A DNA stretch of 64,000 nt from a phage: the sequence record PZ171032.1; one strand, written 5' to 3'. Each line of letters opens with the position of its first letter. Within the stretch, counting starts at the first letter, position 1. Shown here one piece after another: positions 13,350 through 58,035 of this stretch. The translations under genes were made by a program, and so were the position numbers. The notes below the pieces were generated by a model that did no database searches, had not been told where the DNA came from, and saw nothing but the letters and a program-made list of their open reading frames with translations.

Positions 13350-13361
13350 TGACAGGGGCCA

Positions 13362-14843
13362 ATGGCCCCTTCTGGAGTTTTAATGGATAGCAGAAGTTCA
13401 GAAATCATTGCCTCGCAGAAAGATGATGCCCTGAGAATGTTGCAGGCTGCACGTATGTATCTCCTTGAAAAGCTGCCGTTTTATGGCACACTACTGTCAG
13501 GGTTGCAGTTCGTAGAAAACCACACATGGTGCTCCACCATGGCAACCGACCATAAACGCATCTATTACAGTCCTGAGTTCATTATGGGATTGGCTGATGA
13601 GCGCAAGGCTATTCTTAAGGCTTCTCTAACTGACGAGCAGTTTGAGATGGCTGAAGTTTTCTATTCCCCAAAATCTGTGAAAGAGGTGGCCTTCCTTCTG
13701 TCACATGAGGTGGGGCATATTATCTGTGATCATCTAGTCCGTGGTAAAAGCTTTGAGCCGGAACTGTTCAATATTGCTTGTGATCACGTTATCAACACAG
13801 GCCTTGTGGTTGACTTTAGCAAACCTCCTTGTGTTTTCTTCCCGAAGGGGAAAAGCACTACGTTCATGAAAGGTAAGCCTTTTGGCTTCTTAGCCAGCTG
13901 CTACTGTGACATGAGGTTTCATGGATGGATTGCTGAGAACGTTTATGCAGTTCTTGATAAGCAAAGAGATCAGAATAACGGTAAAAGTAAGAACGGTAAA
14001 GGTGAGAACTCTCAAAGTGATAAGCGACAAACCGATGATCACATGAGTGGGAACGGTGGCACCAGTGATAATCTTGGAAAGGCTATGGGGTATGATCAGC
14101 CACAACCTGTAATCAGCCAATCTGATAAAGATCAGGCCATGCAGGACTCTGGTGATATGCTGGAGGCAGCAATGCAAGCTTCCGGAGGTCGTTGCCCTGA
14201 GGCGGTGCGTGAGTTTGTCAAGAACAGGGGTAAGCCTGTAATCAACTATATAGACATCATTAAGCAACGCATGTTGTCTAAACGAAAGGCTGAACTGACC
14301 TACAGAAAACCTGGTCGCCGATCTGGGTCTTTGACCAGCACAATGCGAAAAGTTGGGGCTATAAACAAGAACCAGCACGTTATTGTTCCCGGTCGTAATC
14401 CGGAAAACACCATAGATATTGTTGTAGCTTTAGACGTTTCTGGCTCGATCTCTCAAAGAACTTTAAAGAAAATGTTCAATGAAATCACCGGATTGTGCAA
14501 TCTGTATAAAGAGTTTAAGGTTACAATGTTCTGTTGGTCAACTGAGGTTGGAGAGGTTAAAGTATACACTCGCGGTAACATAGATGAGATGATCAACTAT
14601 GAGGTCCACTCAACATGGGGCACAACAGCTGCTTGCGTGTTCGAGTATCTAGATGCCAACATACCAAATGCAAAAGATGTCATCGTATTGACCGACCTAT
14701 ACTTTGAGCATAACTTTGAACAAAAGGCTGTTGACAACAAGTGGAAAAAGTACGATACTTTATGGGTTCTCACCGAAGGGTATAATAAAAATTATATCCC
14801 TAGCTTTGGGAAAACTGTGGAATTAATCGAGTACGCTAAGTAA
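13362..14843 (+). CDS. metallopeptidase-like (HExxH) plus von Willebrand factor A domain protein (DUF2201-type layout)
   Basis: 'LLSHEVGHIICDH' zinc-binding-like motif in the N-terminal half; C-terminal VWA MIDAS motif 'VVALDVSGSIS'; this layout commonly partners with MoxR ATPases. Confidence 0.72.
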   Translation: MAPSGVLMDSRSSEIIASQKDDALRMLQAARMYLLEKLPFYGTLLSGLQFVENHTWCSTMATDHKRIYYSPEFIMGLADERKAILKASLTDEQFEMAEVFYSPKSVKEVAFLLSHEVGHIICDHLVRGKSFEPELFNIACDHVINTGLVVDFSKPPCVFFPKGKSTTFMKGKPFGFLASCYCDMRFHGWIAENVYAVLDKQRDQNNGKSKNGKGENSQSDKRQTDDHMSGNGGTSDNLGKAMGYDQPQPVISQSDKDQAMQDSGDMLEAAMQASGGRCPEAVREFVKNRGKPVINYIDIIKQRMLSKRKAELTYRKPGRRSGSLTSTMRKVGAINKNQHVIVPGRNPENTIDIVVALDVSGSISQRTLKKMFNEITGLCNLYKEFKVTMFCWSTEVGEVKVYTRGNIDEMINYEVHSTWGTTAACVFEYLDANIPNAKDVIVLTDLYFEHNFEQKAVDNKWKKYDTLWVLTEGYNKNYIPSFGKTVELIEYAK

Positions 14844-43300: not shown

Positions 43301-44212
43301 CCCTAAGTTAATGCGTGCACCTGCGGCATCTCTGGCCCCAGTACCGCCTTGCTCTATAGCAAGAGGTTGCCACGAAGCTGTTTGTTGGTTCCACATGCCC
43401 CAACGGCCTGTTGCATCAAGCTGCAAGTACCCTGCTGTGTTTAAATCATCTCCAGCACGGATAACTGTTCTTGTTGGGTTGTTTGCCTCTAGGCGTTTAA
43501 ATTCATCACGAAGTGCTATTCTTTTTGTTGTTGCTACACCGTTGGTTACTGCAATGGTATACATGGCTCCGGTGGTAGCGCCACGGAAAATACCATCAAC
43601 AGTTGTAGTATCACGACGAGATACCACACCATTCAGAAATTTTTCACCAGCTGCTACAGAAGGGTAGTTGGTAGTTCTTCCCTCTTCAATAACTGCAGGA
43701 CCAACAAAGTTATCAAGGTGAATAACATCACCTACAGTGTGCACTGTACCAAAATCTACACGCTGTGCAAGTGCTTTAGCATCGTTAGCTGTCTGAACAG
43801 TAACATCCATTACATCCTGGACAGACTGCCCTTCGGCTGTCATAATCATAGATGCACCAATGGTAGATTCCAGCTCCTCCCTTAGGGACGGGTCAGTATA
43901 TACCATCCATGCAGCGTCAGTAATCCCACCATCTGAGTACGGTGAAGACAATGCAGGAACAGTGTGTGGAAATTCGCCTTTCCAACGCAGGTAGAGGTCT
44001 TCCTCTTCGAAGTAGGCAAAATCCATTGGGCCGTTTAACTTACCACCTTCCTTAAAGGAGATTACATGAGAAACAGTCCCATCAACATGGACAACATCGC
44101 CAATTTTTACACGACGGGTCAGGTCTGGTTGTTGAACAACCAGGTAATCATCCTCTGTCACTGCGGTAGTGGCAGGAAGAGATTCAATTCTGACAACTTT
44201 AATATCAGCCAT
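40400..44212 (-). CDS. tail fiber/tailspike (1270 aa) with C-terminal intramolecular chaperone domain (peptidase S74-type)
   Basis: C-terminal 'NQNSDRDLKDNIEVIPNALEAIRKMKGYTYTLKENG...AGVIAQEVLEALPEAV' matches the autoproteolytic chaperone signature (SDxRxK ... GxIAQEVxxxLPEAV); N-terminal ~100 aa homologous to the 46847..47515 product. Confidence 0.85.
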   Translation of the reverse strand: MADIKVVRIESLPATTAVTEDDYLVVQQPDLTRRVKIGDVVHVDGTVSHVISFKEGGKLNGPMDFAYFEEEDLYLRWKGEFPHTVPALSSPYSDGGITDAAWMVYTDPSLREELESTIGASMIMTAEGQSVQDVMDVTVQTANDAKALAQRVDFGTVHTVGDVIHLDNFVGPAVIEEGRTTNYPSVAAGEKFLNGVVSRRDTTTVDGIFRGATTGAMYTIAVTNGVATTKRIALRDEFKRLEANNPTRTVIRAGDDLNTAGYLQLDATGRWGMWNQQTASWQPLAIEQGGTGARDAAGARINLGAFYKQRAALEPNFNINNLTGNQDGVYYQPMTAYATEANGYPAGSGAGHLIVWQNNANGGTGCRQEYYPFSNVDVWYLRTYQANTNQWTSWQPMVRPRNDDTFRSHIGLGSRNSPTFGHLYLSQSSADVKSASGIVNGDKYSADGVLEHGYRIYSEVRNDNKAWLTIHLHKGAKGSETHRYLGFREDGVLDCPKYMQVGDLTGQLTNWGLGEWIRSSGAERGFWGSKKAAKMVIWDGGMDESGNGSLEWGVYNNRKAKWEPLPHAAGGTGATTLADAQNLFKVPIAAGVKDFLTLPRTAGMEDGKYYPIIVRTDPYYAPATGTDITLVTRSSSGGDPMNCATLQCHYRTGGWTDRGDSFYGVVNFYQNEKALLGMVAPTRGKQEYVAFYAEARAFPVSIYASRNVVEVFTREQDYQVGSVTNNQDGVKFVAPLQSADLNLAVLGDNNTNTRPIVDFKGTSGFYTGGGTQWHYIGTAERYAIMSKMNMPKVELWADGFDYLCYSGPRKALFSNAGFQCASDGTEDLTNGTFTSKCGNGAGLKGQAEFRSTPEAGQVIVRDVVGTAHRFYNFNKDGTFSAPGGFVCHTGGDWNNQFGPNNPSKIMAGNVNGPQDTMVVGGLSVGFSGNYAFQIAGRQSNLYTRSIEGGNHHPWNKAMQHRGQGLGTSDLDTYNGLWEGIYHQSANNDATYDRHYPVNEAGTLIVLQNNANNGNGCVQEYITYHGDRFIRYGNMVRQTFTWGPWTQTGGNGVSFRYGGTTPEGEIPTSELKVYISGSHVTNNGGNMPANSAHMHYWGNGSTGNRPNVLEFKVLDDSQSNWVWHCGTLPDKSRYLSVNGAVNCVSVNQNSDRDLKDNIEVIPNALEAIRKMKGYTYTLKENGMPYAGVIAQEVLEALPEAVSSFVQSKEIPNPDQDGTPLITEERFYSVDYAAVTGLLVQVCREQDDKITALEEQVKKLTEVVAGLQEKLK

Positions 44213-50327: not shown

Positions 50328-51212
50328 TTATTTCCCGTTAACTCTGTTGTAGTTTCCCTGCTCAGATGGGACTATGGTAGAGGGTCTTCCATATTCCTGA
50401 TAATACCAATCAGCAGCTGATTGGGTAACACCGTTTTCATCTGTCCACATCATGGATTTATATGGCTGCCACTCCTCTGCAGCATTTGTGGATGCAGTGT
50501 CTGCAAATGCCCCTGTGTCCCTCTTGTTACCTACGTTACTACCATTCTTACAGTCGTTGACAGCACCTTTTTGTTGGGTCTTGCCTACTTTCTTGGGATT
50601 GCTGTATACAGTTGCATTAACAACCTTGTTCAAGTAGAATGTGCGGAACTCTGTAAGTTCTACATCAAAAACCATTGCAGCACCTTCGCCAACAGACTTG
50701 CTGGCAGAAAGACTGGTTATGATATAGTTCTCAAGAAGTCTCTCCTCGGTAACCAAAGAAACCAACTGTCGCTTATTAATGATCTCAGTCAAAGCCTCCA
50801 GTGCAGCACTTGGTCGCATAGATGCTGCGGGGTTTTTAGAGTCAGTATTCCTATCGATGTAGTTTTGCTCATAGATTATATGTGGAGATGTATTTACCCT
50901 ACCAGTAAAAGAAAATACACCATCTTTAATTACAGCGTGGTCTGACAGGGTAGATTTATCTTCCACCGCAAACCCAGTCTTATCAACAGAATGTTTGAAA
51001 GAGTAATTCTCAACCTGATCGAAGATAATGGCAAGATCGTTAGTAAAGTTTTTACCCTTCATCTCTATGTTGCGACCGCCATAGTTAAGACCGCTGACAA
51101 ACATGGTGTACTTTACATCGCTTTCGGTTTGCTGCTCTGCCTTTTCAGCCTTTGGAGATTTAACCTCTCGAGGCTTGTACAGGTCTTTTTCATCAACTAT
51201 ATTACTTTGCAT
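50328..51212 (-). CDS. tail/baseplate protein (post-tape-measure gene)
   Basis: Start re-assigned to the ATG of MQSNIV (preceded by GGAGAGG); the ORF-track start at 51239 lies inside the promoter region. Confidence 0.5.
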   Translation of the reverse strand: MQSNIVDEKDLYKPREVKSPKAEKAEQQTESDVKYTMFVSGLNYGGRNIEMKGKNFTNDLAIIFDQVENYSFKHSVDKTGFAVEDKSTLSDHAVIKDGVFSFTGRVNTSPHIIYEQNYIDRNTDSKNPAASMRPSAALEALTEIINKRQLVSLVTEERLLENYIITSLSASKSVGEGAAMVFDVELTEFRTFYLNKVVNATVYSNPKKVGKTQQKGAVNDCKNGSNVGNKRDTGAFADTASTNAAEEWQPYKSMMWTDENGVTQSAADWYYQEYGRPSTIVPSEQGNYNRVNGK

Positions 51213-54441: not shown

Positions 54442-54484
54442 TTTATAGCATCCTTATTAGTCATGTTGTGCACCATATTTGTGT

Positions 54485-54513
54485 ATTTTACCATGATTAT
54501 GGTGCATTGTCAA
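54485..54513 (-). promoter_or_regulatory. sigma70-like promoter with extended -10 and overlapping inverted repeat
   Basis: On the minus strand: -35 TTGACA (reverse complement of 54508-54513), 17-bp spacer, TGG-TAAAAT; a 9-bp inverted repeat TGCACCATA / TATGGTGCA (54469-54477 and 54498-54506) straddles the -10 element. Confidence 0.55.
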
Positions 54514-54565
54514 TTTAACCTTTCAAGCAATTCAAGAACGTGTGTCAAAACCATAAAAGCAAAAA

Positions 54566-54585
54566 GCCCCACCCGAAGGTGAGGC
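54566..54585 (-). terminator. rho-independent terminator after the tube gene
   Basis: Minus-strand GCCTCACC-TTCG-GGTGGGGC hairpin (one G-U pair) followed by TTTTTGCTTTTAT. Confidence 0.65.
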
Positions 54586-54603
54586 TTATGCTAAAGTGTG
54601 CCC

Positions 54604-55077
54604 TTAGATAATACCTGCAAGACCTGCGAGGCCAGTAAGAGCACCAGTGATGTTATCACGGTTGAGCCATGCATCCAGAATACCGATATCCCAGTCCAGT
54701 TGGCCTACTTCGGTTCCGTAAGTCAGGTCAGGCTGTTTCTGGATCCAACCGATTGTGGAAATACCAGGACCCTGGCTACCTTCCAGCAGAACCGGGAAGA
54801 ATACCAGACCAGTAATCGATGCCTGTTTCTGCCAGTCAGAAAGGTAAGCGTTCCATACAGAAGTGTTCTGCAAAGACACGGTCATAACACCAGATTGGTT
54901 ACGGGACAGAGCTGCAGACATTTCACCATCCACACCAACGTGAGGATAAATGTTGTCTTCGTTTCTTGAAACAACAATCTTGGTGTCAGCAGCGAAGCCA
55001 GTGACACGCTGCTGCATCAGATACAGTTTGACCTTTTTAGGGTCATACGCATAAGGAGTTAAAATTTGAGTTTCCAT
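54604..55077 (-). CDS. tail tube protein
   Basis: 157-aa ORF directly downstream of the sheath-sized gene and upstream of the chaperone/tape-measure unit; followed by a strong terminator. Confidence 0.55.
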   Translation of the reverse strand: METQILTPYAYDPKKVKLYLMQQRVTGFAADTKIVVSRNEDNIYPHVGVDGEMSAALSRNQSGVMTVSLQNTSVWNAYLSDWQKQASITGLVFFPVLLEGSQGPGISTIGWIQKQPDLTYGTEVGQLDWDIGILDAWLNRDNITGALTGLAGLAGII

Positions 55078-55087
55078 CTAGGCTTCC

Positions 55088-56464
55088 TTATTCAGTCATT
55101 GCAACAGCATTGGTGGATTTAGAACCAACTTTGTCCAGAAGGACGTTGATCCGGATACGAACGAAGTGCAGGGCGTTGTTATACACCAGTTCTACTTTCA
55201 CACCTTCCAGAACACGAGCAGCCAACTGATTGGTTGGGATTTCTGCACGTTTAGGAACTGTGATGATCGGGTCGTAGAATACATTATTGTCTTCGTCGAA
55301 ACCCGTCAGGATCGCACCATTCTTAATGCCAGTGTTGATTGGGTTGTTCATCAAGACAGATTTGATAACCGGAAGATCATCATCAGACATCTTCATGCTT
55401 AAACCCATATTGGAGCGACGATGCATGTACCCAAACATGGATTCTTCAGATCTGAACTTGATCCAGTGTGCAAAACGAATAGCGTCTGCATACTGACCTG
55501 AAGCACACTTGCCTTCCCAGAAAGCACCAACACCATTAATCATTCTGTAGAAGTTAACGTGGTTTTCCCAAATCGCCATACGCTGAGTTAAAGTCAGAGA
55601 TGGGGCAATCACACCCGGCATCTGTTTTAAGTGCAAGCTGTCACCGTAAGACGGATCGTTGGATGCCATAGCGCCTACGATACCACCCTCTGGAAAATCT
55701 TTATCAGCACGAGGATCGTACATGCCAACACTGTCATACTGTGCAGCCATTAGCTTGGTGGCGATGTTATTATCTTTACCAGTCACATCTTCTGCAGTAG
55801 AGTAGACATGCAGCTTGTAGTTAGCCTGAGCCCACTTAGCACATGCTTCAATGTCGGTGTGGTCTTCATGGCACAGGAAGTACCAATTGTCACGCTCAGC
55901 ATTGATCTTATCAACTACTGTCGAAGGTTTTTCAGCATTGGCGATATTTTTGATTGTATAGTTACCGGTATGATAACCAACAGTGCAGTCACCAGTGATG
56001 GTGAGAACACCTTCATCAGCCTCTACAGTGATATCGTTCAAGCTATCATCTGCTTCAATTTTAGTCTTCATTGACTCTGCAATCTGAGTTGCACCTGTTC
56101 CACCAGAGATAGGCACTATCAAAGAAGTATTGTAGCTACCTTTTGCAATAGTCATTACGACATCGGTATCAGCTGCGGCAGCAATACCTTTAAAATCTAC
56201 AGTGGTCTTTTCTTTGGCCTGTCTGCCGATCATAACATATTGTGGAGGGAATACACCACCAAAAGCTTTTGCTGCAAACTCATACGCTGCAGAGCCTTGT
56301 GCGAAACCATCTTCCACCATCTGGTCCAGCTCAGCATATACGCGAGCTCGCTCAGTAAAGTTATTGTGGATAGCGATGAACAGGGGAGTTTCGAAACCTA
56401 CAGTGTCAATAGGCTGGGTTCCGAGGTTAACTGTAACATCTACCACTTTATCTAAATATGGCAT
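55088..56464 (-). CDS. tail sheath protein
   Basis: 458-aa ORF immediately upstream of the tube gene (conserved sheath-tube-chaperone-tape-measure order); assignment by synteny and size. Confidence 0.55.
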   Translation of the reverse strand: MPYLDKVVDVTVNLGTQPIDTVGFETPLFIAIHNNFTERARVYAELDQMVEDGFAQGSAAYEFAAKAFGGVFPPQYVMIGRQAKEKTTVDFKGIAAAADTDVVMTIAKGSYNTSLIVPISGGTGATQIAESMKTKIEADDSLNDITVEADEGVLTITGDCTVGYHTGNYTIKNIANAEKPSTVVDKINAERDNWYFLCHEDHTDIEACAKWAQANYKLHVYSTAEDVTGKDNNIATKLMAAQYDSVGMYDPRADKDFPEGGIVGAMASNDPSYGDSLHLKQMPGVIAPSLTLTQRMAIWENHVNFYRMINGVGAFWEGKCASGQYADAIRFAHWIKFRSEESMFGYMHRRSNMGLSMKMSDDDLPVIKSVLMNNPINTGIKNGAILTGFDEDNNVFYDPIITVPKRAEIPTNQLAARVLEGVKVELVYNNALHFVRIRINVLLDKVGSKSTNAVAMTE

Positions 56465-56503
56465 TTGTTTCCTCTTAATATCTGTGCACGGATATCAAAC
56501 ACG

Positions 56504-56520
56504 CAGTGTAATCATTACAC
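56504..56520. promoter_or_regulatory. perfect 17-bp palindrome upstream of the sheath gene
   Basis: AGTGTAAT-C-ATTACACT lies between a TATAAT hexamer (reverse complement of 56526-56531) and the sheath Shine-Dalgarno. Confidence 0.4.
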
Positions 56521-56536
56521 TACACAATTATAACGA

Positions 56537-57088
56537 TTACTGACCGCTGTCTGTAACCGCTTGACCAGCATCGGGTGAAGGGAAATGTGTGGTTACTTCA
56601 GCCTTGATTCCCTGGAGATCTTCAAAAGCCCCAATGTCTGTCTCAACAAACCTTACGTTAAATGTCAGCATTACTGTGGCTCTATTTTCATACGTCTGCT
56701 TATTCAACGGCACCCTTTGAGGTGAGATTGTTGAATTGTTGGAGTAGGCAAAGCACGACCCCAGAGGGAAATACTTGTCATAAAACATTGGAAGATTTAT
56801 TGCTTGCAATACTCTACTCAGTGCAGCATATGCCCTGCCACGATAAGCTGTTAACAGATAAGTAACAGTGTAACTGTGGGTGACGTAAGCATTACCCTCC
56901 GCATCTTGAAACTCATTGTCTTCCCAAGTGGTGGGGTTGATCGCCAAAGTTTGTAAAAGTACAAACTCACCTTCCGGCTTCGGTATAGTAGAACTTTCTG
57001 CCAGAACCACAGTTCTTCCTGTAGCAACCTTGACGAGTTTAGCAATAGTGGTTTCAAGATCAGAAAAAACTTTTTCGAAAGCTTCCAT
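56537..57088 (-). CDS. virion neck/tail completion protein (by position)
   Basis: 183-aa ORF in the head-tail joining block. Confidence 0.5.
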   Translation of the reverse strand: MEAFEKVFSDLETTIAKLVKVATGRTVVLAESSTIPKPEGEFVLLQTLAINPTTWEDNEFQDAEGNAYVTHSYTVTYLLTAYRGRAYAALSRVLQAINLPMFYDKYFPLGSCFAYSNNSTISPQRVPLNKQTYENRATVMLTFNVRFVETDIGAFEDLQGIKAEVTTHFPSPDAGQAVTDSGQ

Positions 57089-58006: not shown

Positions 58007-58035
58007 ATTTTACCACAAAGATGAATCAAAAGCAA
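58007..58035 (-). promoter_or_regulatory. sigma70-like promoter with extended -10
   Basis: On the minus strand: -35 TTGCTT, 17-bp spacer, TGG-TAAAAT (reverse complement of 58007-58015). Confidence 0.4.

Follow-up and report, generated by a model that had tools for sequence, protein, structure and literature searches.

In the 64,000-nucleotide (nt) stretch of phage DNA analysed here (sequence record PZ171032.1; hereafter the window), a perfect 17-base-pair (bp) palindrome lies in the spacer between the tail-completion gene Tc1 and the tail sheath gene. Comparison of this spacer with its relatives indicates that the palindrome probably reflects, at the DNA level, an RNA stem-loop that is under selection and acts in cis in the leader of the sheath gene. 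The best explanation as a whole, to which we give roughly even chances, is that a conserved stem-loop within a late transcription unit acts as a 5′ protective element.

The preliminary description had placed the palindrome at 56504-56520. The palindrome is real and perfect, but these coordinates were one base off: AGTGTAATCATTACACT occupies 56505-56521 on the plus strand. The late structural genes of the window are on the minus strand and, read on that strand, the palindrome sits between a TATAAT hexamer and the sheath start, as had been described. In the transcribed sense, the first half of the spacer is TAA(stop)-TCGT-TATAAT(56532..56527)-TGTGT-AGTGTAATGATTACACT-GCGTGTT, and the second half, after GCGTGTT, is TGATATC-CGTGCACA-GATATTA-AGAGGAAACAA-ATG. 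A gap of 5 nt (TGTGT) separates TATAAT from the palindrome, and the arms TGATATC/GATATTA form a second inverted repeat, which extends up to the Shine-Dalgarno sequence. The elements of the leader are as follows.

56532..56527, minus strand: TATAAT, a -10-like hexamer, from the sequence
56523..56503, minus strand: predicted RNA stem-loop hp1, 5′-GUAGUGUAA-UGA-UUACACUGC-3′, from minimum-free-energy and centroid folds and from covariation
56499..56474, minus strand: predicted stem-loop hp2, UUGAUAUC-CGUGCACA-GAUAUUAA, from folds and from comparison by hand with the L013 lineage
56476..56468, minus strand: Shine-Dalgarno region AAGAGGAAA, core GAGG at 56474..56471, from the sequence
56527..56415, minus strand: invariant 113-nt block, the longest invariant run in a 2.4-kb alignment of 11 sequences

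The perfect palindrome is the core of hp1, whose stem of 9 bp (3 G-C, 5 A-U and 1 U.G) carries the loop UGA at 56514..56512. hp2 has 8-9 bp and an 8-nt loop containing GUGCAC; its 3′ arm abuts the Shine-Dalgarno sequence, which lies 6 nt from the sheath ATG (56464..56462). The mean predicted probability of being unpaired, P(unpaired), was 0.84 for GAGGA in the window sequence. Folding energy of the leader was -20.2 kcal/mol for the sense strand vs. -11.3 kcal/mol for the antisense strand, and the G.U pairs of the leader hairpins are possible on the mRNA-sense strand only. We infer that hp1 forms in vivo. Rfam gave no match at E ≤ 10 in 56300-56700 and nothing relevant in seven related loci at E ≤ 1.

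Each loop has a further feature. The AUG in the hp1 apex opens a 6-codon open reading frame (ORF), MITLRV* (56515..56495, minus strand), which is MITPRV* in the L033 lineage and has 13 codons in the L013 lineage; it has no preceding Shine-Dalgarno sequence and is probably meaningless. The 8-nt hp2 loop contains a self-complementary hexamer (56484-56489, minus strand), GUGCAC in the window and UGUGCACA in the L013 clade, which is conserved in three lineages. Self-complementary RNA loops can mediate loop-loop (kissing) dimerisation; we know of no evidence for such dimerisation through the hp2 loop.

Conservation and paired changes in the sheath leader

Over 3 kb, the window shared 96-97% identity with rV5-like coliphages (genus Vequintavirus). 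The palindrome is conserved in related phages. Among 117 GenBank Vequintavirus records, which differ by about 3-10% over the surrounding 3 kb, 116 had a 72-nt spacer between Tc1 and the sheath gene that was 100% identical to that of the window, and pairing was kept in two sister lineages (below). In the sole variant, phiWec191, the hexamer is TATAGT and the hairpins are untouched. When 11 Vequintavirus sequences were aligned over 2.4 kb, 15.7% of columns were variable; the 113-nt invariant block takes in both hairpins, the Shine-Dalgarno sequence, the start codon and 50 nt at the beginning of the sheath ORF. These 50 nt (56415-56464) are invariant in all 11 sequences, including synonymous sites, in a gene that varies elsewhere, which points to a constraint on the region of translation initiation in addition to that on protein sequence. 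The same spacer occurs at ~96% surrounding identity in 17 GenBank records (MG0656xx) named 'Campylobacter phage' (host Campylobacter jejuni), which look like Vequintavirus genomes under a doubtful host label.

Sister lineages were sought by protein-guided searches of IMG/VR, metagenomes and Logan assemblies. Further searches covered IMG/VR with a stem-agnostic DNA pattern, JGI/ENA metagenomes, 5.8 billion proteins, and 7 contigs. Three distinct hp1 lineages were present in the data searched (Vequintavirus, L033 and the L013 clade); P0002 and P0004 gave no new hp1 variants. The sheath of L033 is 71% identical, and its spacer differs from that of the window at 3 nt only: TATAAT is changed to TAAAAT, and the outermost palindrome pair A...T is changed on both sides to G...C (A-U to G-C in RNA). 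The L013 clade comprises nine contigs from several samples (L013, L014-L016, L020, L021, L028, L034 and L046), with a sheath 70% identical and one common spacer. Its hp1 is GUAGCGUAA-UGA-UUAUGCUAC, and TCTCCA stands in place of TATAAT. Relative to the window, hp1 of this clade has a double change, U-A to C-G, together with G-C to G.U and, at the flank, U.G to U-A.

All 9 of the 9 hp1 pairs form in each of the three lineages; two pairs changed on both sides and two on one side. Taken over lineages, 27/27 pair cells were paired, vs. 15-63% when partners were slid. The apical 11 nt of hp1 are identical in the three lineages, and the lower stem covaries. When the same numbers of stem substitutions were placed at random, all pairs were kept with P = 0.06-0.16 for L033 and P = 0.008-0.036 for L013, and the joint chance was about 5e-4 to 6e-3. 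MAFFT and RNAalifold misaligned hp2 between the window and L013 by 1 nt and produced a spurious long-range helix; hp2 was therefore judged from single-sequence folds and by manual comparison. In this comparison, the hp2 stem is kept in L013 through changes of G.U to A-U and of U-A to U.G. The same fold, with hp1 and hp2, was predicted for the three lineages at -15.4, -17.0 and -16.2 kcal/mol.

As bare motifs, neither the palindrome nor TATAAT exceeds chance; conservation and covariation do. The window contains four perfect 8+1+8 palindromes vs. 1.4 ± 1.0 expected, 22 pairs of 8-nt arms with loops of 0-10 nt vs. 11.9 ± 4.3 expected, and 27 TATAAT hexamers on both strands vs. 32 expected. The other perfect 8+1+8 palindromes are at 13354-13370, 44126-44142 and 50407-50423; the one at 13354, AGGGGCCAATGGCCCCT, has a likeness, in sequence only, to the GGGGCC...GGCCCC stems of terminators t026/t027 (rV5 Table S4). 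It is very improbable that the palindrome is a chance one without function whose conservation reflects a recently shared or recombined segment. Such a reading would fit the number of palindromes expected per window and the near-identical block of roughly 120 nt shared by the window and L033. It does not fit 116 of 117 identical spacers in surroundings that differ by 3-10%, the two independent double compensatory changes in two lineages, or the low joint probability of the kept pairs.

Promoter, operator and terminator readings of the site

TATAAT had been described as lacking a recognisable -35, and we confirmed this. No hexamer at 16-18 nt from 56532..56527 matched TTGACA at ≥4 of 6 positions; the best hexamers matched at 2-3 of 6 at 17-18 nt spacing, and a sigma-70 scan was silent. 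A TG extended -10 was also absent, the preceding bases being CGT and not TGn. Scored against the phage late/extended -10 matrix (TGnTAAAATA), the site cGtTATAATt reached 0.47 bits, ranking 1312th among about 128,000 positions, whereas the six motif sites themselves scored 15.6-19.1 bits; the L033 version scored 5.0 and the L013 version -17.5. The hexamer is TATAAT in the window, TATAGT in phiWec191, TAAAAT in L033 and TCTCCA in the L013 clade, which has thus lost it and kept both hairpins. Neither Table S4 of the rV5 genome paper (PMC3606486) nor the RefSeq record of rV5 lists a promoter at this site. On these sequence data, a conserved promoter is not supported as a component of the element.

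TATAAT may be a weak lineage-specific internal promoter, since TAnnnT is kept in Vequintavirus and L033, or it may be fortuitous. If such a promoter (TATAAT or TAAAAT) worked alongside the hairpin, transcripts would start at the first hp1 bases and carry a 5′-terminal stem-loop. The spacing is suitable: 5 nt from the -10 to hp1 would place +1 at A56521 or G56520, the first bases of the stem. TAnnnT is kept in two of three lineages; however, the -35 and TG are missing, the matrix score is poor, the hexamer is absent from the L013 clade, and TATAAT occurs in the window at chance rate. We consider this promoter possible but doubtful. It is compatible with the best explanation, for which it is one of two routes to a hairpin-capped 5′ end.

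The preliminary description also considered an activator-dependent late promoter with an operator. In this case TATAAT would be the -10 of the promoter, and the palindrome, centred at about +9, would bind a dimeric phage or host regulator. The site has a perfect consensus -10 hexamer, stands in front of a high-copy gene and has the dyad symmetry of an operator (perfect 8+1+8), and TAnnnT is present in phiWec191 and in L033, where TAAAAT is the hexamer of the phage's own promoters. Besides the promoter defects described above (-35 and TG absent, 0.47 bits, TCTCCA in place of the -10 in the L013 clade with both hairpins kept, and no promoter at the site in the rV5 paper or RefSeq record), the behaviour of the arms argues against an operator. 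Compensatory and G.U changes keep pairing instead of base identity or perfect DNA symmetry, and neither conserved contact bases nor further copies or half-sites were found. A search for other copies of the palindrome, which had also been suggested, yielded none beyond chance in the window (≤3 mismatches) or in the 138-kb rV5 genome (≤4 mismatches and two shorter cores). The palindrome occurs once in the rV5 genome and its near-matches are at the level of shuffled sequence; the idea of a regulon was dropped. We regard a promoter with a DNA operator as improbable. Host-regulator sites (CRP, TyrR box, GalR/LacI-type and LexA) were considered and rejected as leads; the half-site GTGTAA is GalR-like, with spacing one base short.

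Another reading takes hp1, extended to 12 pairs with G.U and followed by UUUGAUAU, as a weak intrinsic terminator or attenuator that would partly stop transcription between Tc1 and the sheath gene. A permissive consensus scan flagged 56526..56500, with 12 pairs, 3 G-C and 5 T in the 8-base tail window (tail TTTGATATCC), and in the L013 clade, too, the stem is followed by a U-rich stretch, UUGUUAAUAU. However, the stem is rich in AU and GU at -8 to -10 kcal/mol, whereas recognised terminators of the phage are G+C-rich (-11.5 to -24.7 kcal/mol) with long T runs. The T tract here is not continuous and also forms the 5′ arm of hp2. Terminator-like matches in the region numbered 7 vs. 3.1 ± 1.8 in shuffled sequences, a modest excess, and a stop ahead of the most abundant tail proteins contradicts their stoichiometry. 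A terminator or attenuator at this position is thus hardly likely.

Late transcription unit and proposed function of hp1

The genes and signals around the leader are the following.

57088..56537, minus strand: Tc1 tail-terminator/tail-completion gene, 183 amino acids, from the ORF list and 'Tc1 tail completion protein' in the rV5_ev147 annotation
56464..55088, minus strand: tail sheath gene, 458 amino acids, from the ORF list and the rV5_ev147 annotation
55077..54604, minus strand: tube gene, directly after the sheath gene, from the ORF list and the rV5_ev147 annotation
54587..54564, minus strand: strong terminator after the tube gene, from a terminator scan

The Tc1 ortholog matches Pfam PF23961 (Phage_tail_terminator_9). 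The Tc1 stop codon TAA is at 56539..56537, and the sheath ATG lies 72 nt further downstream. Upstream of Tc1 are Hc1 and, beyond it, Ne1. The nearest strong promoter-like site upstream of the sheath gene is TGGTAAAATA at 58016, in front of Ne1, and the terminator scan found no strong terminator between this site and the terminator downstream of the tube gene. The leader would thus be transcribed on the minus strand within a late Ne1-Hc1-Tc1-sheath-tube unit running from 58016 to 54587..54564. Sheath and tube proteins are needed in hundreds of copies, and Ne1, Hc1 and Tc1 in about 6-12 copies. Because no strong terminator intervenes, the sheath and tube genes appear to be co-transcribed with these low-copy genes; the junction between Tc1 and the sheath gene is therefore where differential expression (a step-up) would have to be set. 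According to the rV5 genome paper, T4-type late factors are absent (Kropinski et al. 2013, PMC3606486).

In the mechanism that we propose, hp1 would come to lie at the 5′ end of an mRNA by one of two routes. A transcript might start 6-7 nt after TATAAT, at about A56521/G56520; alternatively, endonucleolytic processing of the polycistronic RNA might leave hp1 at the 5′ end of a sheath-tube mRNA. A 5′ end base-paired within hp1 would not offer the single-stranded 5′ end that RppH and RNase E require, and hp2 would prevent upstream sequence from trapping the Shine-Dalgarno sequence next to it. The sheath and tube genes would as a result be expressed above the upstream low-copy genes. This specific assignment, with hp1 as a 5′-proximal mRNA stabiliser and hp2 as an insulator of the ribosome-binding site, is drawn by analogy and is tentative, at somewhat less than even chances. 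Processing by RNase III was rejected because the stems have only 9-12 bp.

The preliminary description also proposed a hairpin in the 5′ untranslated region controlling sheath translation. Folding, conservation and covariation bear out an RNA stem-loop under selection. That hp1 controls translation in particular is conjectural; it is placed 40-60 nt ahead of the sheath AUG, and the Shine-Dalgarno sequence is not part of it. The main alternative to the protective element is of this kind: a phage protein on the invariant hp1 apex (GUAAUGAUUAC), or refolding between hp2 and a helix that pairs with the Shine-Dalgarno sequence, would time or autoregulate sheath translation. Both the identity of the apical 11 nt above a covarying lower stem and an alternative pairing of UGUUU..UCC with GGA..AAACA, which rivals hp2 within about 0-2.5 kcal/mol, favour such an RNA operator or structural switch. 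L013 favours it as well: at L013:1424-1503, UUCUCC at the TATAAT position is predicted to pair with the sheath Shine-Dalgarno sequence and to close a three-way junction around hp1 and hp2, giving a predicted P(unpaired) of 0.22 for the L013 Shine-Dalgarno sequence vs. 0.84 in the window. This UUCUCC lies 4 nt past the Tc1 stop codon; for that reason a terminating ribosome could, in the modelled fold, open the pairing, so that translation of the two genes could be coupled. On the other side, hp1 is distant from the AUG (40-60 nt) and excludes the Shine-Dalgarno sequence, there is no candidate binding protein, the alternative helices consist of invariant bases and so have no support from covariation, and thermodynamic predictions are unreliable at this scale. 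We consider an RNA operator or switch unlikely. A bolder form, in which hp1, hp2 and the Shine-Dalgarno sequence together constitute a dedicated phage riboregulator and a new cis-regulatory RNA family, with either a late phage protein (e.g., sheath, tube or Tc1) bound to the hp1 apex or hp2 toggling with a helix that pairs with the Shine-Dalgarno sequence, also seems unlikely. If it were true, sheath translation would be timed or autoregulated relative to tail-tube assembly, and the structured sheath leaders of every Vequintavirinae genus would be variants of one device.

Several points weigh against a conserved stem-loop acting as a 5′ protective element. Only three distinct lineages are available, so covariation statistics are weak, and 55 of 500 shuffles reached the observed score. 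The near-identity of the window and L033 over the shared block could partly reflect recent recombination and not selection. hp1 is AU-rich and modest in energy (-8.4 to -10.0 kcal/mol in the three lineages), and the z-score of the leader fold was only -1.55. The predicted pairing of the L013 Shine-Dalgarno sequence fits translational control better than pure stabilisation. No conserved RNase E-type site was evident by eye upstream of hp1, and literature searches found no transcript mapping, 5′-end or mRNA half-life data for Vequintavirus.

The protective stem-loop would be of interest in several respects. rV5-like phages are widely isolated candidates for therapy and biocontrol whose late gene expression is essentially unmapped, and the hp1 leader would offer a mutable handle on the post-transcriptional setting of structural-protein stoichiometry. 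Phage engineering or the design of reporter phages could also make use of it as a compact leader. A TATAAT accompanied by a palindrome may be taken for a promoter and operator and yet be an RNA feature.

Inverted repeats were also observed at the next promoter of the region. Downstream of the tube-gene terminator, 54469-54506 contains a strong sigma-70-type promoter on the minus strand (-35 at 54513.., -10 at ..54485), and this terminator-promoter module is present in all three lineages (window, L033 and L013). A perfect 9-nt inverted repeat, TGCACCATA/TATGGTGCA, with arms 20 nt apart, brackets the -10. The orthologous promoters at L033:2952-2969 and L013:3425-3469 also have inverted repeats around the -10, AAGTAT/ATACTT and TCTCCTGCTGT/ACAGCAGGAGA, respectively; the structure is thus conserved across lineages and the sequences are unrelated. 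In L013, the right arm of the repeat includes the Shine-Dalgarno sequence of the next gene. RNA from read-through and RNA initiated at this promoter might fold differently.

Other sheath leaders and known systems

Structured sheath leaders, of unrelated sequence, were also present in all other Vequintavirinae genera examined. Seunavirus, Avunavirus, Henunavirus, Certrevirus and A73-like phages have, at the same position, sense-strand leaders with multiple hairpins and G.U-containing stems. Their elements include a 13-15-bp G.U-rich stem, GGUUAUUGAUAAGC...GCUUAUUAGUGAUC, a G5/C5 hairpin and a GCAC/GUGC hairpin. Two sets of spacers were delimited.

L002:1386-1503, L003:1389-1503, L005:1386-1503, L006:1385-1494, L007:1391-1503 and L038:902-1003: structured spacers of 100-130 nt
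L022:1168-1203, L035:968-1003 and L036/L037:970-1003: spacers of only about 30 nt, with a sheath 61-69% identical

In the 100-130-nt spacers the stem is GGTTATTGATAAGC-loop-GCTTATTAGTGATC and the G5/C5 hairpin is variable; they also contain the GCAC/GTGC hairpin and a box, GCTGGTCAATAA, that is conserved, and have no Rfam match. Parts of them are homologous to the last codons of Vequintavirus Tc1 (CGGTTA..., GGTCAGTAATCGTT). The conserved 'AGQ*' codons in these other genera were considered as a recoded C-terminal extension of Tc1; this was rejected because the frame differs between genera, and a constraint at the nucleotide or RNA level is favoured. In most lineages a small hairpin immediately precedes the sheath Shine-Dalgarno sequence. 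In the L022/L035/L036 lineage it is the single hairpin, GGUUAGCUAACC or AGUUAGCUAACU; the small palindrome is GGTTAGCTAACC in L022/L035 vs. AGTTAGCTAACT in L036/L037, a compensatory change of the outer pair from G-C to A-U. A structured leader at the junction of Tc1 and the sheath gene thus appears to be a trait of the whole subfamily, with hp1 as its Vequintavirus form. The hairpins of the other leaders differ from hp1 in sequence and number, and hp1 is confined to Vequintavirus and two sister lineages. hp1 itself is a new, unannotated element; stem-loops in mRNA leaders or between cistrons, to which it belongs, are familiar.

Among known systems, the putative late promoters of rV5 (TGGTAAAATA; PMC3606486 Table S4) and the T4 late promoters (TATAAATA) resemble the site in having a -10-type element without a -35 before a late structural gene. 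However, cGtTATAATt falls far below the rV5 sites in matrix score (0.47 vs. 15.6-19.1 bits), is not in the published list and has disappeared from one sister lineage. Rho-independent terminators of rV5-like phages share with hp1 a hairpin followed by a U-rich stretch that a consensus scan flags; they differ in having G+C-rich stems (-11.5 to -24.7 kcal/mol) and uninterrupted T runs (PMC3606486 Table S4), compared with 3 G-C pairs and -8 to -10 kcal/mol for hp1. Phage translational operators (the MS2/PP7 coat-protein hairpins; T4 RegA, gp32 and gp43) are likewise small hairpins close to a ribosome-binding site in which the apex is invariant and the stem covaries. Those operators, for which binding proteins are known, contain the Shine-Dalgarno sequence or AUG or occlude it directly, whereas hp1 is 40-60 nt upstream and is not known to have a partner.

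Stabilisation of mRNA in E. coli by 5′ secondary structure that blocks RppH and RNase E is established for ompA and papA (review PMC3997798, its refs 92-95). Stem-loops of this class lie within about 0-4 nt of the RNA 5′ end and lengthen mRNA half-life, an effect lost when the stem is disrupted. hp1 has no sequence similarity to these stem-loops; it is a weaker, AU-rich hairpin and is accompanied by a second one that adjoins the Shine-Dalgarno sequence. Its assignment to the ompA/papA class would be by analogy only and would hold only if a transcript start or cleavage lies at 56526-56520. As in that class, a short stem-loop opens the leader of an mRNA that encodes a structural protein of very high abundance. 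In the pap system, a stable major-subunit mRNA is carved by RNase E from a polycistronic papBA transcript that also encodes a low-copy product, and a similar arrangement may operate at the junction between Tc1 and the sheath gene.

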